A stretch of DNA of 64,000 nucleotides from an uncultured Lentisphaerota bacterium. Lineage in GTDB: Bacteria; Verrucomicrobiota; Lentisphaeria; Oligosphaerales; CAITYL01. Numbering within the stretch: the stretch's first letter is position 1; each line of letters begins with the position of its first letter. A model generated the notes under the pieces. The model was not told the origin of the DNA, made no database searches, and saw only the letters and a list, made by a program, of their open reading frames with translations. A program made the translations under genes and the position numbers. Where the stretch lies: positions 7,084-71,083 of the forward strand of contig CAITYL010000398.1 in the NCBI GenBank assembly GCA_903896595.1. Direction: 5' to 3'. Of this stretch, positions 3,048-45,320 are shown one piece after another.

Positions 3048-3992
3048 ATGGCCAAACAACACTACGAAGCCAAAAACGAGCGCATTCGGGCCGCCTTCCA
3101 GGAGCTCCGAAAAACCCATCCTGAGCGGACGAAGCGGCGCCTGGCGCTGTCCTGGAGCAACTGGGGCTTCGGCCGGGAGCCACTGGCGGACTCCGCGGCA
3201 CGCCTCCAGGCGGCCGGCATCCGACATATCGAACTGCATGGCAACCATTACGGGCCGGACCTGGGTTACCGCCCGGCCGAAACCCTGAAGATCCTGGGCG
3301 ACCATGGTCTGGCGGTGGCCGGCGTTTGCGGCATGTTTTCGGCGGACAACGATCTCTCCAGCAACCGGGCCGGCCACCGGCAGGCCGCCCTTGATTATAT
3401 CCGGCGCGAACTCGACTTCACCGCCGCGGTGGGCGGCAGCTATCTGCTGGTGGTGCCGGGCGCGGTCGGCCGACCGGCCAAGTACGATGATGCCGAGTTT
3501 GACCGCAGTGTGGAAACGCTCCAACTGGTGGCTGACCGCTTCGTTGAGCGCGGCATCCAGGCGGCGGTCGAGCCGATCCGCGCCGCCGAGGTCAGTTTCT
3601 GCCATACCATTGCCGACGCCAGGCGCTATCTTGACGCCGTCAACCATCCCGGCATCCAACATATCAATGGCGACGTCTATCACATGCAGGTCGGCGAGGC
3701 CCATATACCTTCGGCCCTGCTGGAGGCTGGCGACCGCCTGGTCAACCTGCACCTGGCCGACAGCAACCGCTGCGCCTTGGGCGACGGCGCGCTGGACCTC
3801 GACACCCTCATCATGGCGCTGTATCTGCTGGGCTTCAACCGGGACGGCTGTTACGCCACTCCCGAACCGCTCGGCCCCGGCGGCGACCCCTACCCCGCCA
3901 TGCACGGCAAGCCGAACCCGGCGGTGCTCGACCGCCTGGTGCAACAAACCGCCACCTATTTCCGCGAACGCGAAAACGCCATCCTGGCCTGA
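3048..3992 (+). CDS. sugar phosphate isomerase/epimerase (xylose isomerase-like TIM barrel)
   Basis: Motif pattern of the AP-endonuclease-2/xylose-isomerase-like barrel: IRHIELHG, YLLVVPGAVG, AAVEPI, NLHLADSNR. Start moved from the track start (2988) to ATG 3048; AGGAG at 3029-3033. Confidence 0.8.
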   Translation: MAKQHYEAKNERIRAAFQELRKTHPERTKRRLALSWSNWGFGREPLADSAARLQAAGIRHIELHGNHYGPDLGYRPAETLKILGDHGLAVAGVCGMFSADNDLSSNRAGHRQAALDYIRRELDFTAAVGGSYLLVVPGAVGRPAKYDDAEFDRSVETLQLVADRFVERGIQAAVEPIRAAEVSFCHTIADARRYLDAVNHPGIQHINGDVYHMQVGEAHIPSALLEAGDRLVNLHLADSNRCALGDGALDLDTLIMALYLLGFNRDGCYATPEPLGPGGDPYPAMHGKPNPAVLDRLVQQTATYFRERENAILA

Positions 3993-4006
3993 TCGAGTTT
4001 CGATTA

Positions 4007-4208
4007 TGTTGGGAACCCCCTTTTAAGGAAAGGCGGTTCCCAAACCCTCCGTCAAACCTGTTTGTACCTTTTGCGGATTCCGCAGGCCGCCCATGTGCGG
4101 CAGGCCATGATTGGGACATGTGGGGCGGCCTGCGGAATCCGCAAAATGAAACAAAAGTTTTGGGAAGGGGTTTGGGGAGCACCCTTTTCCAAAAGGGTGG
4201 CCCCAACA
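4007..4208. repeat. ~200-bp palindromic MITE-like intergenic element, copy 1
   Basis: Termini tgttgggaaccccc ... ggccccaaca are inverted. The inner 21-22-bp perfect stem is ttgcggattccgcaggccgcc(c) 4071-4092 with (g)ggcggcctgcggaatccgcaa 4123-4144. Near-identical copy at 29468..29653. Confidence 0.85.
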
Positions 4209-4225: not shown

Positions 4226-5806
4226 ATGAGCAAGTTAGGACAGGTTAATACCACGGACATAGCGGCGGCGATCCGGCTGGGGTGCCGGACCATGCAGAGC
4301 ATGTTCAACCGGGATGACCACGACATCCCGTTCTTCAACACCTGGGTGCGGCCAGATCCCGTCATGCAGTTCAGCGCCGCCCACAGTGAGTCGCACACTC
4401 CGGGCCGGCATCTGAATGCGCTGCTGAACGCGGAGGACGCCGCCGGCATTGAGATTGATGAAACGGCCATTGAAAAGCATCGGCGGGCCGCCTTTTTTTC
4501 CTATGGCGGCCCCGTGCCGCTGCCGCTCAACCGCCAGGTCATCGACGGGCCGCTGGTCAACTTCTGTCCGCACAATATTCGGGAAGGCTTTCACGCCCTC
4601 TATGTTTTGGTCAAATACCGGGGGGACGCACAGGCCCGCGACCTGGCGGAGCGGAGCATTGCGGCCATCTTTGAGTTCTGGACGCCCGCCGGCGGCTGGA
4701 ACCAGACACGGCTCCGCGAACTCGGCCTGAACTATCAGGAATGCCAGGGGTTCATCCATGGCGAGGCGCGGATGCTCGGGCCGCTGGTCAAGTATTACCG
4801 CGCCACCGGTTCCGCCCGGGCGCTGGAACTGGCGCTGTTGCTGAAAGAGAAGGCGATCACAGAATGCTTCCTGCCGGACGGCGAGTATGCCGAAGAACGG
4901 TTCATCACCCGGCACGCCCATTCCGTCACCTGTGTCATGTCCTCGCTGGCGCAGCTCGCCGACCTGCTGGACGACGCCTCCCTGTTGCTGCGGGTGAAGG
5001 CGTTCTATGACCAGGGGCTGTGGCAGCTCCGCGACGCCATCGGCTGGTCGCCGGAGTCCGTGGGGCAGCGGGACAGCGACCACGGCGAAGGCAACAACAC
5101 GGGCGACATCGTCGAGACGGCACTGATTCTCGGGCGCTGGGGCTGGCCGAACTACTACCAGGATGCCGAGCGGATTCTCCGGTGCCACCTGCTGCCGTCG
5201 CAACTGCAGGATGTTTCTTTCATCCAAGCTCCGCCCAACCCAAAGGGGGAAGACGGCTTGCGCGAGGTGGCCGACCGGCACCTGGGCGCCTTCGGGTTCC
5301 CCGCGCCGTACGGGCACGAGTCCGTCGGTCCGGGCCGCGGCGGCGCGGTGTCGTTCAACCTGGACATTGTCGGCGGGGTCGTTGGTTCCTTGTGCGAGGC
5401 GTATCGGGAAGCCGCCGTCAGCCGGCCGGCCGGGCACTGGGTCAATCTGTTGTTTGACCGCGAGACGGCCGGCCTCCGCGTGTACTCGCCGTATACGCAT
5501 GACGCCCTCACGATTGAGGTTCGCAAAGCCGCGCCATTGTGGGTGCGCCTGCCGGCATGGACCGATTTCAGCACCGTAACGATTGAGGGAACAGAAGAAC
5601 CGCCGCGCCGGATCAACGGCTACCTCTTCTTCGCCCAGCCGACGGTGGGGAAACCAATTCGCATCCGCTTCCCGCTGAACGAGCAACAACTGACACTTTC
5701 CGGAGCGGTGCATATCCAGCCGATCCGCGTTCACCTGCGGGGCGACGCCGTCGTGGCCATGGACAATTTCGGCGCCGACCTTACCTTCTTTGATGCTTAC
5801 GCCTAA
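4226..5806 (+). CDS. hypothetical protein, possibly an alpha/alpha-toroid glycan-active enzyme
   Basis: 527-aa product from ATG 4226 (GAGGT at 4214-4218). The track start 4118 runs through the palindromic repeat. Helix-rich sequence with HAHS ... EGNNTGDIVETALILG ... ERILRCHLLPSQ. Family not recognised with certainty. Confidence 0.7.
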   Translation: MSKLGQVNTTDIAAAIRLGCRTMQSMFNRDDHDIPFFNTWVRPDPVMQFSAAHSESHTPGRHLNALLNAEDAAGIEIDETAIEKHRRAAFFSYGGPVPLPLNRQVIDGPLVNFCPHNIREGFHALYVLVKYRGDAQARDLAERSIAAIFEFWTPAGGWNQTRLRELGLNYQECQGFIHGEARMLGPLVKYYRATGSARALELALLLKEKAITECFLPDGEYAEERFITRHAHSVTCVMSSLAQLADLLDDASLLLRVKAFYDQGLWQLRDAIGWSPESVGQRDSDHGEGNNTGDIVETALILGRWGWPNYYQDAERILRCHLLPSQLQDVSFIQAPPNPKGEDGLREVADRHLGAFGFPAPYGHESVGPGRGGAVSFNLDIVGGVVGSLCEAYREAAVSRPAGHWVNLLFDRETAGLRVYSPYTHDALTIEVRKAAPLWVRLPAWTDFSTVTIEGTEEPPRRINGYLFFAQPTVGKPIRIRFPLNEQQLTLSGAVHIQPIRVHLRGDAVVAMDNFGADLTFFDAYA

Positions 5807-6561: not shown

Positions 6562-6753
6562 ATTCACCACGAAGGCACGAAGGACGCGAAGTTTGATCGA
6601 AGAGTTTCGAAGAAAATTCAAGTATAAAAAGCGATCTCACATTTCGCACGGTTTGAAACATTCTGACTACTGGCTACTGAATTCTGGCTACTTTTGCAAT
6701 TTCCTCAAGCCTCTTCGATTTATCTTCGTGCTCTTCGTGTCTTCGTGGTGAAT
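6562..6753. repeat. triplet-unit hairpin element (arms attcaccacgaaggcacgaaggacgcgaag / cttcgtgctcttcgtgtcttcgtggtgaat)
   Basis: 30-nt arms at 6562-6591 and 6724-6753 are reverse complements with 4 mismatches, 3 of them G-T. Each arm is three tandem 8-nt units (cacgaagg-like). A further pairing is tcgaagag 6597-6604 with ctcttcga 6711-6718. Confidence 0.85.
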
Positions 6754-14438: not shown

Positions 14439-14568
14439 GTGAGCCTCTTGCAAAACTCCGATTACCGGTTCAATGCCCATCCGAGCCGCGAACGAAGCGA
14501 CCGCAGGGAGCGAAAGTGACCGGTCAAAAAGCATCCACTTTTCTTAGTTCCGTCATGATTTTTATTTT

Positions 14569-14662
14569 CCCGCAGAGGCGCGGAGGCGCAGAGAAACAGC
14601 CAAGTCAAATTTTGCCATGATGCCTGACCTGATTTTTCTCCGCGCCTCTGCGCCTCTGCGGG
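14569..14662. repeat. triplet-unit hairpin element (cccgcagaggcgcggaggcgcagagaaa / tttctccgcgcctctgcgcctctgcggg)
   Basis: 28-nt arms at 14569-14596 and 14635-14662 are complementary at 26 of 28 positions, with a 38-nt loop. Arms are three cgc(a/g)gag(g/a) units. Confidence 0.85.
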
Positions 14663-14728
14663 AGATAATTCGTAACTGAAGGTCGAATGCTGAAGGATGG
14701 CAACCGTGGGTTTTGCAAGAGCCTCATG

Positions 14729-22875: not shown

Positions 22876-23514
22876 TTAGTAGCTGATGCAATAGGGGCCA
22901 CTGTCCCAACTCCAGAGGGTTCCGTATTTGAGCCAGGTGAAATGCCCGTCCTGGAAGAGGAAGTTGCTGCCGCCCATGTGCCGGGCCGAGAAAAGGCCGG
23001 GGAGATCGGCATTGTTGCAGAACCCGCTGTTCATGTACCAATTCCGGGTGTCCCCCATGCGGGCCGTGTTACCCGGATGCTGCTCGGAAGACAGTTTGTG
23101 AAAATAGTAAGGGACACTGCCATATTTCATCCAACAATAGCTGGGGGTTCCGGTGTAATTGATGTTGATGCCGTAATTGTATTCATCAGCAGGCCGGGCC
23201 GGACAGACGAACAGGCCCTTGGCGTAGCGGAAATCCTCCCAGGAGGTGGAATTGGCGTCGTCGTCGGGCGTCAGGCCGAAGTAGGGGGCGAGAAAGTACG
23301 GCCAGTCCCAGTCGGCAGGGGAACCGCTCGGCACTAGGTCGTCGTAGTCACCCGCATACATCACGAAAGCCGTATGGAACTGCTTGAGCTGGGCGACGCA
23401 TTTGATGGACTTGGCCCGCTCCCGCGCCGACCCCAGCGCCGGCAGCAGCATGCTAGCCAGGATGGCAATGATGGCGATCACCACCAAAAGTTCGATGAGA
23501 GTGAAGCGTTTCAT
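22876..23514 (-). CDS. prepilin-type N-terminal cleavage/methylation domain protein, H-X9-DG (DUF1559-like)
   Basis: [27 protein letters not shown] from ATG 23514. C-terminal H-MGGSNFLFQ-DG is exactly H-X9-DG. Confidence 0.9.
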   Translation of the reverse strand: MKRFTLIELLVVIAIIAILASMLLPALGSARERAKSIKCVAQLKQFHTAFVMYAGDYDDLVPSGSPADWDWPYFLAPYFGLTPDDDANSTSWEDFRYAKGLFVCPARPADEYNYGININYTGTPSYCWMKYGSVPYYFHKLSSEQHPGNTARMGDTRNWYMNSGFCNNADLPGLFSARHMGGSNFLFQDGHFTWLKYGTLWSWDSGPYCISY

Positions 23515-23565: not shown

Positions 23566-23793
23566 GCAATGGGACCTATAGGACATCTGGGACCTAGGGG
23601 GGCACTAACCTGAATTATTCACGACCCAAATGATGACGTCCATTGTAGCAAAGCGATTGCATCGCGCTCTTCGAGTTGCCACATCCCGATTGGGCGGGCT
23701 ACAAGCCCTTTGCTACACTCATGAATAATCCAGGCTAACGCCCCGGCCGTGGTTTCATCCTGTGCCCCATCGGTCCCATTGGTCCTATAGGTC
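23566..23793. repeat. long nested inverted-repeat structure in the PEP-CTERM/pseudopilin intergenic region
   Basis: Outer arms gggacctataggacatctgggacctaggggggcac (23570-23604) and gtgccccatcggtcccattggtcctataggtc (23762-23793). Inner pairs are attattca/tgaataat and tgtagcaaag/ctttgctaca, plus small hairpins gcgat-tgc-atcgc and gggct-aca-agccc. Confidence 0.75.
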
Positions 23794-25761: not shown

Positions 25762-25874
25762 AATCCGCGGAACCGTGGACGCATGTTCGCGGATTCCGGC
25801 AGGCCGTCTTGAGCAGCAGGCCACGAGTGGGACAGTAGGAACGGCCGGCGGAATCCGCAAAAGGGGGTTCCCAA
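25762..25874. repeat. collapsed/degenerate copy of the palindromic MITE-like element
   Basis: gcggattccggcaggccg (25789-25806) and cggccggcggaatccgc (25842-25858) match the inner stem of the 4007 and 29468 elements. It ends with gggggttcccaa (25863-25874), which is the element terminus. An extra 8-bp inverted repeat is aatccgcg/cgcggatt. Confidence 0.65.
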
Positions 25875-26262: not shown

Positions 26263-26347
26263 TTCACCGCGAAAGAACGCAGAGAGCGCGAAAGAAAAAT
26301 CTGTACACGTATTTCTTTCGCGATCTTTTGCGTTCTTTCGTGGTGAA
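26263..26347. repeat. triplet-unit hairpin element (ttcaccgcgaaagaacgcagagagcgcgaaagaaa / tttctttcgcgatcttttgcgttctttcgtggtgaa)
   Basis: ~35-nt arms with one bulge and a few G-T pairs; 14-nt loop aatctgtacacgta. Shares the ttcacc(a/g)cgaa terminus with 6562..6753 and 39698. Confidence 0.85.
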
Positions 26348-29322: not shown

Positions 29323-29467
29323 GATAGCATCCTCGTCGCAGAGGGTCTCGCCCAATTCAAGAACCCATCCGGGCAGCCCCGGCACAGGCAAAAGGAAATA
29401 TACCCGTGCCGGACCAGCTTTGCGTCACCGGACGATTCCCCGGATGGATGACCGTTTTGTTGGACAA

Positions 29468-29653
29468 TGTTGGGAACCCCCTTTTGAGGAAAGGCGGTTC
29501 CCAAACCCTCCGTCAAACCTGGTTGTGCCTTTTGCGGATTGCGCAGGCCGCCCCTGTCGTCCCAATCATGACCTGTCGCGCGAAAGCTGCCTGCGCAATC
29601 CGCAAAAAACAAAAGTTTTGGGAAGGGGGTAGGAAAACCCTTTTTCGGGGTGT
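29468..29653. repeat. palindromic MITE-like intergenic element, copy 2
   Basis: The left arm is almost identical to 4007..4090. The inner stem is ttgcggattgcgcaggc 29532-29548 with gcctgcgcaatccgcaa 29589-29605. The central segment is the reverse complement of that in copy 1. Confidence 0.85.
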
Positions 29654-29655
29654 CA

Positions 29656-29946
29656 TTACGTTCTCTGCTGAAGTGTCCTGAGCGCCTCCGTAAATGACTC
29701 ACACAGGTCATATAGACATGCTTGATCTTTGCCAAAATCTCTATCAAGCAATCCACCCATTCCGCCAAGAGGAACTTGCTCGAGAAGTTTGATGGCTGCG
29801 CGGTGATTCCCCCATTCGCGAAATTCTTTGATCGGTCTTTCAAATGTTTGGTCCCAACATGCCACACTGTGTTCATGTAGAAATCGAAGGAGTGCATCGA
29901 TTCGATCAAGTAGCCGTCTGACATCTGGATTAGTTGATGCGTCCAT
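29656..29946 (-). CDS. small hypothetical protein
   Basis: 96-aa ORF in a lower-GC islet. Protein-like helical composition with GGMGGLLDRDFG. No family recognised. Confidence 0.5.
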   Translation of the reverse strand: MDASTNPDVRRLLDRIDALLRFLHEHSVACWDQTFERPIKEFREWGNHRAAIKLLEQVPLGGMGGLLDRDFGKDQACLYDLCESFTEALRTLQQRT

Positions 29947-29997
29947 ATTTTCCCCCTTCGCCGGACCGAAAATTATCCATTGCCCCCGTGCGGAATG

Positions 29998-30579
29998 TTA
30001 CTTGCGCCCCTCAACAAGCCGGTACTGGGTGATGACCTCTTGCCCAGCGAAAAACAAAGGAGAAAGAGAGTGACGTTGCTCGCCTAAATCGTTTTCCGCC
30101 GCGTTGGCAGTGAATACACCCCCATCCGTAAGCGCATAAAAAATAGTCTCGCCATTCTTTGGCAACGGAACCTCCTTTGCCGTGGTCATCTGCGGCTGAA
30201 ACTTGGCCACCAAATTGACCATAGCTTGAGCTGCTTTGCGGATACTCTCGTGACCGATTCCGCCAATTGAACCTCCTCCACTGCTAAAATAGATGCTGGC
30301 ACTGCCATCAGAGAGTGCAATCACCGTGGCCGCCCCCTCCGGGAAACCTATCTCCATGAGTACCCCCCATGGCTGATTGGATGCAGCAGGAGCACTCAGA
30401 CCAAATGCCGTTCGAGAACCATGCAAAGCAGCATCACGCATATCGCGATACACGTTAGGCCGTGCATGCTTCAGAGCGGGCTGGTTTGGTGGTGGTAATT
30501 GGGTAGCGCGATTACGAAAGATAAGCCATAATCCAACTACACCGATGATGAGAACCAAAAGAAGAAAAGTTGATTTCAC
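29998..30579 (-). CDS. membrane-anchored hypothetical protein
   Basis: 193-aa ORF with an N-terminal TM helix (FLLLVLIIGVVGLWLIF) followed by a globular part (GSASIYFSSGGGSIGGIGH). Lower GC than the flanks. Confidence 0.55.
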   Translation of the reverse strand: MKSTFLLLVLIIGVVGLWLIFRNRATQLPPPNQPALKHARPNVYRDMRDAALHGSRTAFGLSAPAASNQPWGVLMEIGFPEGAATVIALSDGSASIYFSSGGGSIGGIGHESIRKAAQAMVNLVAKFQPQMTTAKEVPLPKNGETIFYALTDGGVFTANAAENDLGEQRHSLSPLFFAGQEVITQYRLVEGRK

Positions 30580-30878
30580 GCGCTGTGCCTTGACTCGTCT
30601 ACGCTATGAGAGCGTCCAATCACAATAATTGTTACCGTACCCGAAACCGTTGTTGCCACCCGCTTGGGGCTGACTATATCACCGGCCGGGAAAGCCGGCA
30701 ATGGTTCAGGATCTACGGAACAATGCCGAAGTCGTCGCCCACGCCAACCCCATGAATTATTATTTACAATCAACTATACTGCAATACAATAAATCACTTC
30801 TATTATGTGCGGCGGATTCACGCATCACGTCTTCACGCATCACGCCTCCCTTCCTGCCGCACCGGTTATATTCCCCGC

Positions 30879-37487: not shown

Positions 37488-37573
37488 GCCCGGGTGGCGG
37501 AATGGCAGACGCTACGGACTTAAAATCCGTTGATCGCAAGGTCGTGCGGGTTCGACTCCCGCCCCGGGCACCA
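37488..37573 (+). tRNA. tRNA-Leu (anticodon UAA)
   Basis: Acceptor gcccggg/cccgggc. Anticodon stem-loop acgga-cttaaaa-tccgt (UAA). Long variable arm. T arm gcggg-ttcgact-cccgc. Encoded CCA at 37571-37573. Confidence 0.9.
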
Positions 37574-44639: not shown

Positions 44640-45320
44640 ATGCGCAACAACATGATCGCCTTCAAACGCCCCTTCACGCTGATCGAACTCTTGGTGGTGA
44701 TCGCGATCATCGCGATTCTGGCCAGTTTGCTGTTGCCCGCTTTGGGCAAGGCCAAGGACAAGGCCAATGCACTTGCCTGCGGGAATAATCTGAAGCAACT
44801 GGGGGTGGCATTTACCTTGTATGCAAATGATTTCAATGAACGTTTCGTGCCAACCTATGATGGTAATTGGCCCCAAGCATGGCCGGTTCTCATCGACAAC
44901 TATATGCCGGTGGCAGGGTTCACCGCGGGTCAACCGGCCAAGGCAACCAGCTTGACCTGCTCGGGCATCGCCAGCCATCGTGCCGACTACGACTTCGGCA
45001 GCACCGGAAAAAAATACGCCTGCGACTACGGCAAAAACTGGTACGCCGGCAATACGGCCGACGGCACGTGGTGTTCGTTCTTGCGCGAGTCCGCATACCC
45101 GTCCGAGCACCTTTATGCCTGGGATGCGCTTTGGCTCTCCGTTGGCCCGTGGAACGCCTTAAACAATGGCGGCATGGGCGAGGCGGATATTTTCACCTAT
45201 CCGCATGGCGGGCGGCTCAACCAACTATTCGTTGATGGCGCGGTCGCCGTGTCTACCTTGCGCTACCGGTTGACTGCCGACACCAACTACCGCGCCTATT
45301 TTGGCCGCGACCTCCCCTGA
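44640..45320 (+). CDS. prepilin-type N-terminal cleavage/methylation domain protein, H-X9-DG (DUF1559-like)
   Basis: [36 protein letters not shown]-terminal [12 protein letters not shown]. Confidence 0.9.

Follow-up and report, generated by a model that had tools for sequence, protein, structure and literature searches.

Two palindromic elements and a remnant

The stretch of DNA analysed here (64,000 nucleotides from an uncultured Lentisphaerota bacterium; hereafter the window) carries two look-alike palindromic elements, at 4007-4208 (copy 1) and 29468-29653 (copy 2), where a preliminary description had placed them, together with a third, fragmentary copy on the minus strand at 25786-25874. 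Two test patterns each gave exactly two matches in the window and none in 100 shuffles. The left arms, which had been called near-identical, indeed agree at 53 of 54 nt between copies 1 and 2, and a 21-nt block of the right arm is identical as well. Each copy had also been described as a long hairpin, and folding confirmed this with strongly negative scores of -115.6 kcal/mol (z = -9.1) for copy 1 and -84.3 kcal/mol (z = -5.3) for copy 2.

Copy 1 lies on the plus strand and begins with the L arm (4007..4068; nhmmer with the family L-arm profile, E = 7.5e-23), within which a terminal REP-like hairpin was located at 4008-4045 (DNA fold -12.8 kcal/mol, z = -4.3). The central hairpin, a type A cassette, follows at 4069..4146 (DNA fold -36.1 kcal/mol, z = -9.3), with a stem formed by 4069-4091 and 4124-4146 and a loop core, caggccatgattgggac, at 4101-4117, which orientation scoring assigned to the 'flop' orientation. 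The R arm (4150..4208; nhmmer with the R profile, E = 4.4e-21) consists of R1, a block at 4150-4170, and R2, a terminal hairpin at 4172-4208, and it corresponds imperfectly to the L arm read in reverse complement, as the L profile matches 4207-4153 on the minus strand (E = 1.5e-4); a repeat search likewise returned inverted arms of 93 nt that are 73% complementary. To the left, cctgatcgagtttcgattatg (3985..4006, plus strand) weakly resembles, by eye, the consensus GCATGACCGTTTTGTCGGATGATG of an outer repeat, FL, and is tentatively taken as its degenerate form; the stop codon of the upstream gene (TGA, 3990-3992) falls within it. The right end of copy 1 lies 5 nt 5' of the GAGG in front of the ATG at 4226, in agreement with the reported proximity to a Shine-Dalgarno sequence.

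Copy 2, also on the plus strand, truly extends over about 29442-29659, with an outer repeat at its left and a rearranged right end. The outer repeat FL, ggatggatgaccgttttgttggacaa, occupies 29442..29467 (fuzzy match to the FL consensus at 29441-29463 with 4 errors, the rest read from the sequence), and is followed by the L arm at 29468..29529 (nhmmer E = 1e-22; 98% identity with the family consensus). The type A cassette spans 29530..29607 (DNA fold -25.7 kcal/mol, z = -6.0); its stem pairs 29530-29551 with 29586-29607 and contains a single C/T mismatch in the inner part (CCGC vs GCTG), and its loop core, gtcccaatcatgacctg, at 29559-29575 was scored as 'flip'. The short right end (29608..29659) comprises R1 (29608-29628) and a rearranged segment (29629-29659) ending ...aaaaccctttttcggggtgtcattac, and the R profile matches 29612-29646 only (E = 2.7e-5). 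As described earlier, copy 2 stands upstream of argH, 145 nt from its start (29322, minus strand), and close to a stop codon, 2 nt from the TAA of the ORF 29656..29946. A low-GC island adjoins its right end in the GC profile. Further on, the ORF 29998..30579 has a hydrophobic N-terminus, which by eye suggests a small membrane-anchored protein.

The third copy, found by the repeat search between a lacI-type gene and hypA (25786..25874, minus strand; nhmmer with the A profile, E = 2.6e-13), is decayed. It consists of a type A hairpin (25786-25862) fused to the last 12-16 nt of the reverse-complemented L arm (ggggg ttcccaa, 25863-25874), while the remainder of the L arm and the entire R arm are missing; its fold contains mismatches (z = -4.4).

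At one pair of the central stem, copies 1 and 2 carry opposite bases. In copy 1, gcggattCcgcagg (C at 4080) pairs with cctgcgGaatccgc (G at 4135), whereas in copy 2 a G at 29541 pairs with a C at 29596, that is, a C:G to G:C swap relative to copy 1. Furthermore, reverse complementing the central loop of copy 1, caggccatgattgggac, gives that of copy 2, gtcccaatcatgacctg, a relation which the preliminary description had missed.

A modular repeat family of uncultured Lentisphaeria

We then searched relatives for more copies. As a result, many were found, and a two-copy segmental duplication was thereby excluded. In a scan of a genome collection, a 20-mer from the L arm occurred in at least 44 copies at no fewer than 37 loci; among the matches listed, almost all were in the Lentisphaeria MAG JBAZJM01 and two in CAITSE01. 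Further family copies were found in L039, L047 and L063, and besides JBAZJM01 at least three other assemblies contain the family. It was thus found in a narrow group of uncultured Lentisphaeria, in which it reaches dozens of copies.

Full-length copies measure about 270-350 bp, and the elements overall 160-350 bp. Their modules are arranged in the order outer inverted repeat (about GGGGTGYATGACNGTTTTGTCGG(ATGATG)), L arm, central hairpin cassette, R1, an optional 62-nt insert, R2 hairpin and inverse outer repeat. The cassette is of type A or type B, which are unrelated to each other, and the window copies are short forms carrying cassette A. The L and R2 hairpins are REP-like imperfect palindromes of 36-38 nt in inverted orientation, and folding of the whole element can yield either a single long hairpin or three individual ones. 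Many copies are deletion derivatives, either truncated or internally deleted, with minimal single hairpins of 34-36 nt in L004 and L022. By a crude gene model, 47 of 51 elements lie outside ORFs; the intergenic settings were tandem in 19 cases, divergent in 10 and convergent in 9, the orientation relative to the flanking genes was the same in 10 and opposite in 9, and many copies are situated 1-40 nt from gene ends. The ORFs that run through elements gave no Pfam match, and only 4 translations resembling them were detected among 5.8 billion proteins.

The outer repeat FL was recognised in about 25 cases, on one side of the element or on both. Just outside the outer repeats, 15-32 nt beyond both core ends, direct repeats of at least 9 nt flank 4 of 38 elements, where 0.11 would be expected, and the remaining 34, most full-length copies included, have no clean direct repeats. 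No empty site was recovered. About 340 kb of collected sequence contained neither a parent insertion sequence for the family nor any transposase with matching ends, and the case for mobility thus comes from the repeat structure and the four direct-repeat cases. In the window, nothing that was found went against the earlier remark that it lacks a transposase. Together, the inverted and direct repeats fit a MITE that would have been moved by a DDE transposase.

The region upstream of argH was compared with three orthologues. L045 (98% in ArgH) ends inside the L arm and shares the FL/L junction of copy 2, all that L041 (88%) retains is an FL-like remnant, at a break in synteny, and L042 (82%) has no element upstream of argH; these orthologues yielded neither a timeline for the swap nor a clean empty site. 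A phage origin was rejected, as viral contigs gave no match to the element.

The small length (under ~600 bp) without coding capacity, the many dispersed and mostly intergenic copies, and the long imperfect terminal inverted repeats (the match of the L profile to the R arm at E = 1.5e-4, the 93-nt arms and FL) are features by which MITEs are recognised, and some copies also have direct repeats at their ends. The designation as a MITE-like palindromic element was thus borne out, and the family is very probably of MITE type.

Paired stems and inverted loops

Stem pairing is maintained across the family, as the count of double-sided changes was significant in both cassettes. In cassette A such changes affected 6 of 21 pairs (10 cells), in cassette B 9 of 21 (27 cells), and none of the 500 shuffles reached either value. 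In cassette B, 97.6% of the cells are paired; slid controls gave pairing of 30-48% only. About half of the distinct double changes are of the transversion type without a wobble route (C:G to G:C, U:A to A:U, C:G to A:U and U:A to G:C), and one-nucleotide indels are mirrored on both arms (GGGG/CCCC vs GGG/CCC). G:U was not clearly favoured over other mismatches, with 8 vs 12 cells in cassette A and 10 vs 10 in cassette B. At the position of the flagged swap, L047, another locus in another genome, has the same G:C on both arms, and the swap is thus an inherited subfamily marker and not peculiar to copy 2. At this position, 4 other copies show T:G and 2 show C:A, in both cases uncompensated. A metagenome scan for the G-variant arm returned 17 matches, a single true copy and 16 chance occurrences in coding DNA.

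The loop is found in both orientations, at 19 vs 7 in cassette A and 12 vs 8 in cassette B, where at least three independent flips could be recognised by inspection. The 33-nt loops of L026 and L038 are exact inversions of each other (1 mismatch), with the asymmetric stem base unchanged, and L023 contains two copies, 1.4 kb apart, whose shared 40-nt inner segment runs in opposite directions. At the locus orthologous to copy 1, the window and L018 carry the 'flop' and L039 the 'flip' form, and the inner 34 nt are identical at 28-29 positions after reverse complementing versus 9 in direct comparison. This inversion at a single orthologous locus indicates that strand exchange inside the palindrome occurs. 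Inversion of the whole cassette, or insertion of the centre independently in one orientation or the other, was rejected for cassette B, because the asymmetric stem base keeps its orientation while the loop flips. We also looked for copy-specific complementarity between the variable loop-side segments, as a signature that template switching would leave, with a negative result: register counts were no better within than between copies, and the duplex energy was weaker within copies (-6.4 vs -8.7 kcal/mol, permutation p = 1.0). This is explained by the inner end of the A stem, which has a conserved asymmetry (CGCCCC vs CGAGCG). Both the negative result and the fact that this asymmetry has not been evened out speak against the explanation favoured below.

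The loop orientations were taken from short-read metagenome assemblies, and the fold-back flank of the related contig L063 indicates that artefacts can arise at these elements. By reasoning, an assembly artefact is unlikely to lie behind the flipped loops, since the final k of the assemblers exceeds the stem length (22-26 nt) and the window and L018, two independent assemblies of the copy 1 locus, agree in orientation; the 'flip' of L039 may yet be such an artefact.

In three species, the space between two co-directional genes is taken up by copy 1. At this locus, the arms and stem are ~96% identical (158/164, window vs L018) and the inner spacer ~74%, while third codon positions in the orthologous trio are 77-81% identical. 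The 17-nt loop core is the same at 17 of 17 positions in all three species, 43-44 of the 44 stem bases are unchanged, and the outer flanks are far less conserved than the core. Here, the core evolves at about one fifth of the rate of synonymous sites.

We favour the explanation that the elements form a high-copy, non-coding, modular MITE family in which the arms of the stem template each other, and we assign this reading as a whole a probability of about 0.55. A DDE-type transposase supplied in trans would have spread the copies, and the two arms of the perfect 18-26-bp stem would template or recombine with each other, either through template switching at a hairpin or cruciform or through conversion between arms. 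Arm-to-arm exchange would flip the loop, and a mutation in one arm would be either reverted to the original or turned into a matched double change. Template switching is indeed a documented source of one-step compensatory changes and of loop inversions (PMC8794818). The C:G to G:C swap may accordingly have arisen by arm templating in a progenitor and then been inherited by a small subfamily (copy 2 and L047), although for templating as the source of the swap we would put the odds slightly below even. Templating alone predicts near-neutral change in the stem, yet nearly all of its bases are unchanged in the orthologous trio while third positions are 77-81% identical; the conserved arms and stem of old, immobile copies would need an additional force, which could be gene conversion from other copies or host use.

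The pairing had been proposed to be maintained by selection or by templated repair; the maintenance itself was confirmed, and these data do not tell the two causes apart. The stem of cassette B, in which invariant blocks stand beside a hypervariable yet paired patch, looks more like selection on a recognised structure. We regard it as doubtful, with the odds well against it, that the core (arms, stem and 17-nt loop core) is actively maintained while the outer transposon ends decay. If this were true, the flip-flop of the loop would signal frequent extrusion of a hairpin or cruciform in vivo, and the family could be a Lentisphaeria analogue of the long-lived REPIN-RAYT partnership on a different, TSD-forming chassis; alternatively, the repeat would be copied or repaired via a hairpin intermediate and would constitute a natural template-switch measuring system with many replicates.

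Alternative readings and known repeat systems

The strongest of the alternatives, which we nevertheless consider unlikely, is a REPIN-like element whose hairpins (terminal, central or both) would be recognised as folded single-stranded DNA by a Y1/HUH transposase (RAYT or IS200/IS605-like), so that foldable copies alone would propagate and double changes would gather by selection among copies instead of templated repair. Two inverted REP palindromes (L at 4008-4045 and R2 at 4172-4207) indeed form a hairpin unit as in REPINs, for which the same alternative folds and common compensatory changes have been described (PMC3116915). The single-hairpin derivatives and the sharing of the swap by a subfamily also agree with such an origin, the invariant stem blocks next to the paired hypervariable patch fit recognition of a structure, and the persistence with high conservation at an orthologous locus resembles reports on REPINs. 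However, REPINs are expected to have no outer inverted repeats and no target duplication, and the family has both FL, with terminal inverted repeats of ~25 nt, and direct repeats of at least 9 nt (4/38), which are unexpected for Y1-type transposition. Moreover, no conserved GTAG-like 5' tetranucleotide was found at the hairpins, whose left junctions (at the slash) read ...ATG/TTGGG or ...GG/TTGGG, and tblastn with two approximate queries gave no significant match to a Y1 transposase in the ~340 kb, which is a small part of any genome. The ORF 29998..30579 was considered as a RAYT beside copy 2 and rejected, with only E = 1.8 in tblastn and no Pfam match. Selection among copies also cannot explain the conservation of a copy that has been fixed at one locus since before the split of the three species.

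Somewhat less probable still is a host-level structure in which purifying selection would preserve pairing and sequence alike. As RNA, it would be an intercistronic or 3' hairpin with an effect on mRNA stability, termination or translation; as DNA, it would be bound by a nucleoid protein or topoisomerase. The slow evolution of arms, stem and loop core (~96% vs 77-81% at third positions; 17/17 in three species), the location of copy 1 between two co-directional genes in all three, and the many copies within 1-40 nt of gene ends speak for such a function. In contrast, the elements show no orientation bias with respect to transcription (10 vs 9), the loop core is conserved in both orientations, which counts against an RNA function that depends on the loop sequence, and many copies are truncated or internally deleted. 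The lack of a clear preference for G:U (8 vs 12 and 10 vs 10, as above) is likewise unfavourable, and the appearance of constraint could come from concerted evolution within a set of more than 50 copies. Promoter-like or terminator-like signals were absent, with no consensus sites in the elements, and a sigma-54-like motif (TGGCA...) in the B loops was dismissed by eye for misfits in spacing and in the -12 box. At the gathering score, the sole Rfam match in the window was a tRNA at 37488; a permissive search returned only generic hairpin matches far below threshold, namely M23 at 21 bits (41 required) and microRNA models at 18-36 bits (60-100 required), so no known RNA family is represented. 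Integron attC sites were rejected as well, as the copies are single, dispersed among unrelated housekeeping genes and in all orientations, with no array seen.

Finally, a chance resemblance or segmental duplication, with the swap a coincidence or sequencing error, would be conceivable from the window alone, with its just two full copies and one swapped pair, but has practically no chance in view of at least 44 further copies in other genomes, pattern matches expected 0 times by chance, covariation beyond all 500 shuffles in both cassettes and the identical swap in an independent assembly.

We next compared the family with known systems. Bacterial MITEs include Correia/NEMIS of Neisseria, ERIC/IRU of enterobacteria, RUP of pneumococcus and Nezha of cyanobacteria. 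Like these, the Lentisphaeria elements are short, non-coding, high-copy and intergenic, with terminal inverted repeats, a long hairpin, deletion derivatives and, in some copies, short direct repeats at the ends. They differ from them in a core of three nested palindromes whose centre is filled by either of two unrelated, interchangeable cassettes, in outer repeats that decay around a conserved inner core, and in a central loop that occurs in both orientations. The BIMEs of E. coli are tandem arrays of REP units and share with the family the mosaic of palindromic units in alternating orientation, the variable linker modules and the several architectural classes, whereas the Lentisphaeria element is a bounded unit with a fixed module order and defined ends.

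As in REPINs (Bertels and Rainey 2011, PMC3116915), two inverted REP-like hairpins fold into one long hairpin or a 'clover', compensatory changes are common, single-hairpin remnants occur and copies persist at orthologous sites. Unlike REPINs, the family has direct repeats and outer terminal inverted repeats without a GTAG-type motif, a separate 22-26-bp hairpin sits within its far longer spacer (120-190 nt), and no RAYT was found in the ~340 kb.

Parvovirus AAV ITRs occur as flip and flop forms that arise by hairpin-primed replication of linear genome ends. The two forms likewise differ by an inverted asymmetric interior with a perfectly paired stem; the likeness is of outcome alone, since nothing here points to a linear or hairpin-primed intermediate. 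Quasi-palindrome correction is described by the Ripley model. Matched multi-base or transversion changes on both arms are also typical of template-switch mutations (Monttinen and Loytynoja 2022, PMC8794818), and exact loop inversions between perfect inverted repeats that recur independently in relatives are shared with template switching and with the reported small inversions of plastid hairpins. Those cases are unique loci (rRNA, microRNA, plastid spacers) with mostly short loops, whereas the substrate in Lentisphaeria is a dispersed family with 33-40-nt loops and many parallel replicates per genome.

The family is a new one, very probably of the MITE type, and its flip-flop loop is unusual. 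Compensatory changes in REPINs and loop inversions by template switching have been described elsewhere, and current ideas are not overturned; with this analysis, Lentisphaeria, an uncultured lineage that has received little study, gains a documented repeat family. The origin of compensatory changes is still argued for RNA stems (PMC8794818). Here, dozens of parallel copies of two long hairpins exist in one genome, with at least one locus kept across three species, and loop inversions, matched double substitutions and matched indels can be read directly, which provides a natural data set on selection versus templated mutation. The conserved core against the decaying outer ends also raises the question of domestication. 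In practical terms, the elements break metagenome assemblies and are sometimes called as small ORFs (56-112 aa), and annotators should therefore mask the family.

Copies and modular anatomy of the repeat family

The window carries two palindromic elements of about 200 bp on the forward strand, copy 1 at 4007–4208 and copy 2 at 29468–29653, as a preliminary description of this DNA had located them; an arm-derived 29-mer and 21-mer each matched the window exactly twice, versus no match in 100 shuffles. The left arms are nearly identical, as had been claimed (53/54), a 21-nt block of the right arm is identical in both copies, and each copy indeed folds into a long hairpin, at −115.6 kcal/mol for copy 1 (z = −9.1) and −84.3 kcal/mol for copy 2 (z = −5.3) relative to shuffled controls. 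The core of copy 2 was placed correctly, but its real span is ~29442–29659, and a decayed third copy on the reverse strand (25786–25874, between hypA and a lacI-type gene) had been missed. Profile searches of the 64-kb window found no copies beyond these three. The central loop of copy 2 is the reverse complement of the copy 1 loop, a feature that had been overlooked. On its right, where it is truncated, copy 2 adjoins a low-GC island (29600–30800; 0.47–0.55 vs 0.64–0.74 in the flanks past the element). Two small ORFs lacking a Pfam match lie there on the minus strand (29656..29946 and 29998..30579), and this island may be an insertion that cut copy 2.

An alignment of ~50 copies gave a fixed module order. 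The outer repeat FL (~GGGGTGYATGACNGTTTTGTCGG, to which ATGATG is optional) comes first, then the L arm, which starts TTGGGAACCCCCTTTT and forms a separate 38-nt hairpin. These are followed by the central hairpin cassette and block R1, in some copies by a 62-nt insert, then by the R2 hairpin, which ends GGTGGCCCCAA, and by FL again, inverted, at the far end. The central cassette is of two unrelated types, A (TTTTGCGGATTCCGCAGGCCGC-loop-GCGGCCTGCGGAATCCGCAAAA), found in all three window copies, and B (...GCGGAGGGGCGCTTCCGCCACAAGC-loop-GCTTGTGGCGGAAGCGCCCCTCCG...). Since the R arm corresponds to a diverged L arm in reverse complement, the element can fold into a single long hairpin or into three. 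Deletion derivatives are numerous, the smallest being a single hairpin of 34–36 nt, and solitary FL ends also occur. In a relative with 88% ArgH identity (L041), synteny is broken at the site upstream of argH corresponding to copy 2, and only an FL-like GGGCGTATGGCATAATTGTTGG lies there (L041:1940–2510), which is either a solo end from deletion or rearrangement or an FL-like sequence existing without the core.

A search of relatives for further copies, as proposed in the preliminary description, was productive. Scanning species-representative genomes with an L-arm 20-mer matched at least 37 loci; the Lentisphaeria MAG JBAZJM01 accounted for at least 44 copies and, among the matches listed, two loci were in MAG CAITSE01. 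Further copies were present in the metagenome contigs L039, L047 and L063 (ENA and JGI). A contig with the gene downstream of copy 1 begins within the element, as expected if the repeat breaks assemblies. The window organism is itself a member of Lentisphaeria; the closest named species is Oligosphaera ethanolica, with which it shares 72% identity in ArgH. Viral contigs gave no match to the element, and the host range of the family looks narrow. Only 4 among 5.8 billion predicted proteins resemble a read-through translation of the element. Copy 2 (29442–29681) has an ATG within its outer repeat (ATGAC) that shares the reading frame of the L arm, and small ORFs of 56–112 aa have been annotated through family elements by gene callers, such as the 112-aa ORF at L063:4745–5083; these ORFs are almost certainly spurious.

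Probable mobility and genomic setting

Direct repeats of at least 9 nt, lying 15–32 nt beyond both core ends and just outside FL, flank 4 of 38 elements (L009, L014, L015 and L020), versus 0.11 expected from mismatched flank pairs. Together with the terminal inverted repeats, they fit insertion by a DDE-type transposase that duplicates ~9 bp. The proposed inspection for target-site duplications and empty sites gave these candidate duplications, but no empty site was recovered among the loci examined, including the argH-upstream relatives. A clean duplication is absent from most copies, and no transposase was recovered in ~340 kb of sequence examined. The earlier label of a MITE-like element agrees with the structure, except that putative target duplications occur in only ~10% of copies and the parent IS was not found; as far as structure allows, we regard the element as a MITE-type repeat with a probability of about 0.85. 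Its hairpin logic and mosaic structure are like those of REPINs and BIMEs, but the element differs from REPINs in having direct repeats and outer terminal inverted repeats and no GTAG motif. By a crude gene model, the elements are intergenic, frequently 1–40 nt from gene ends, in tandem (19), divergent (10) or convergent (9) settings, and their orientation is unbiased (10 same vs 9 opposite). The literature searched contained nothing on such repeats in Lentisphaerae; the type of element is already known, the family is new, and its flip-flop loop, which is well replicated, is unusual.

Loop inversion and paired changes in the stem

Relative to the L and R arms, the cassette A loop core GTCCCAATCATGGCCTGTCGC is found in either orientation (19 vs 7). 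By inspection, cassette B loops also occur in both (12 vs 8), and within subfamilies the loop has flipped independently at least three times. The loops of L026 and L038 are exact reverse complements but for 1 mismatch in 33 nt; their asymmetric stem base is unturned, and the interior alone is inverted, with breakpoints within the perfect stem. The inner end of the cassette A stem, which is imperfect, turns along with the loop. At locus L023, two copies 1.4 kb apart have an identical 40-nt interior in opposite orientations. The most informative case is the copy 1 locus, which the window shares with two related genomes, L018 (JBAZJM01) and L039 (ERZ27250602); the flanking genes are ~89% identical, and the element measures 198 nt in all three. 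Its loop has one orientation in the window and L018 and the opposite one in L039. The L039 interior matches the others at 28–29/34 positions when reverse-complemented versus 9/34 when read directly, which indicates inversion in place, not re-insertion. The loop orientations come from short-read assemblies, and one contig (L063) has a fold-back flank at such an element; we infer that an assembly artefact is unlikely for the loop itself, since the stems are shorter than the assemblers' final k and the orientation is the same in two independent assemblies. Short inverted repeats with inverted loops between them have been described in rRNA stems (PMC8794818) and plastid spacers. The inversion at the copy 1 locus demonstrates, at the level of genome comparison, that the two arms can template or recombine with each other within the perfect stem.

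The base-pair swap reported between the window copies was also verified: C4080 pairs with G4135 in copy 1, and G29541 with C29596 in copy 2. In cassette B (20 copies), 9/21 stem pairs showed double-sided change (27 cells), and 97.6% of cells were paired, versus 42–48% when partners were slid; the values for cassette A (26 copies) were 6/21 pairs (10 cells) and 97.8% versus 30–45%. None of 500 shuffles reached the observed values in either cassette, so that pairing is indeed kept across the family, as had been argued for the two window copies. At variable positions of cassette B, pairing was 0.84–1.0 within a copy and 0.35–0.53 between copies, and one-nucleotide indels are mirrored across both arms. 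Of the distinct double changes, about half are swaps by transversion, which have no route through a wobble pair. The swaps and mirrored indels, together with the published template-switch model (PMC8794818), are consistent with arm-to-arm events that would mirror a single-arm mutation onto the opposite arm; the resulting variants would spread as subfamilies, presumably by transposition or conversion.

The swap position falls in column 24/81 of the cassette A alignment (C:G 19, U:G 4, C:A 2, G:C 1), and the U:G and C:A variants make it a hot spot for C-to-T change on either strand, left uncompensated. The T:G copies are L023, L033, L035 and L028 and the C:A copies L007 and L011 (motif TTCCGC); the hot spot at 4080/4135 could reflect cytosine methylation or deamination. 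A metagenome scan with the G-variant arm found one additional true copy, L047. It lies at a different locus in a different genome, has G:C on both arms at this position and carries another C:G to G:C swap close by. The swap is common to copy 2 and L047 and is therefore an inherited subfamily marker, not private to copy 2.

In the orthologous trio, identity was 56–57/60 in the L arm, 43–44/44 in both stem halves combined, 55–57/60 in the R arm and 17/17 in the loop core; it was 77–81% at third codon positions of the flanking gene and ~74% in the inner spacer, and the immediate flanks, FL region included, are clearly more diverged than the core. Since arm-to-arm copying within one element preserves pairing, not sequence, an additional force is required, which could be conversion from many paralogous copies or host use. 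This constraint, and the invariant blocks and paired hypervariable patch of the B stem, favour some selection. A REPIN-like alternative is that copies are selected for a hairpin that is recognised in single-stranded DNA form, and compensatory changes in REPINs have been described (PMC3116915); we consider it unlikely as the explanation of the paired changes, and host-level selection on RNA or DNA structure slightly more doubtful still. Against a sequence-specific RNA role stand the lack of orientation bias and a loop conserved in either orientation, and no promoter, terminator or Rfam family fits the element. Arm-to-arm exchange within a MITE-type repeat is the reading that we prefer. The main value of the family is as a natural system for studying how pairing is retained in palindromes.

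An inverted flank and other repeats

In the metagenome contig L063, the right flank (~5047–5178) of a full-length element (L063:4600–5178) is the exact reverse complement of the left flank (~4600–4742), up to the contig end, and the duplicated flank takes in the beginning of the TPP-enzyme gene that lies upstream. This is either a fold-back contig, as an assembly or library artefact at the palindrome, or a genuine duplication in inverted orientation.

A second palindromic family, MITE-like but unrelated to the first, has the ends ATTCACCACGAAG... and 60-nt arms that are 78% complementary; it lies at 6562–6753 and also at 26336, 39698 and 41300 of the window, as well as in the related loci L006, L011, L018 and L038. 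The isolated intergenic palindrome TCCCGCAGAGGCGCGGAGGCGCAGAGAAA (14568–14663) has 29-nt arms, 93% complementary and 38 nt apart. At 23573–23793, 29-nt inverted repeats (GACCTATAGGACATCTGGGACC...) are separated by 163 nt, and their end motif has one more match, in L022. Finally, 23411–23506 and 44672–44767 form a 96-nt inverted repeat (76%). The translation of 44672–44767 (17 residues, by eye) is what we take to be a prepilin-type N-terminal segment, and the 23411–23506 arm would encode the same segment on the minus strand; if the prepilin reading holds, the two are paralogous gene starts, not a mobile repeat.
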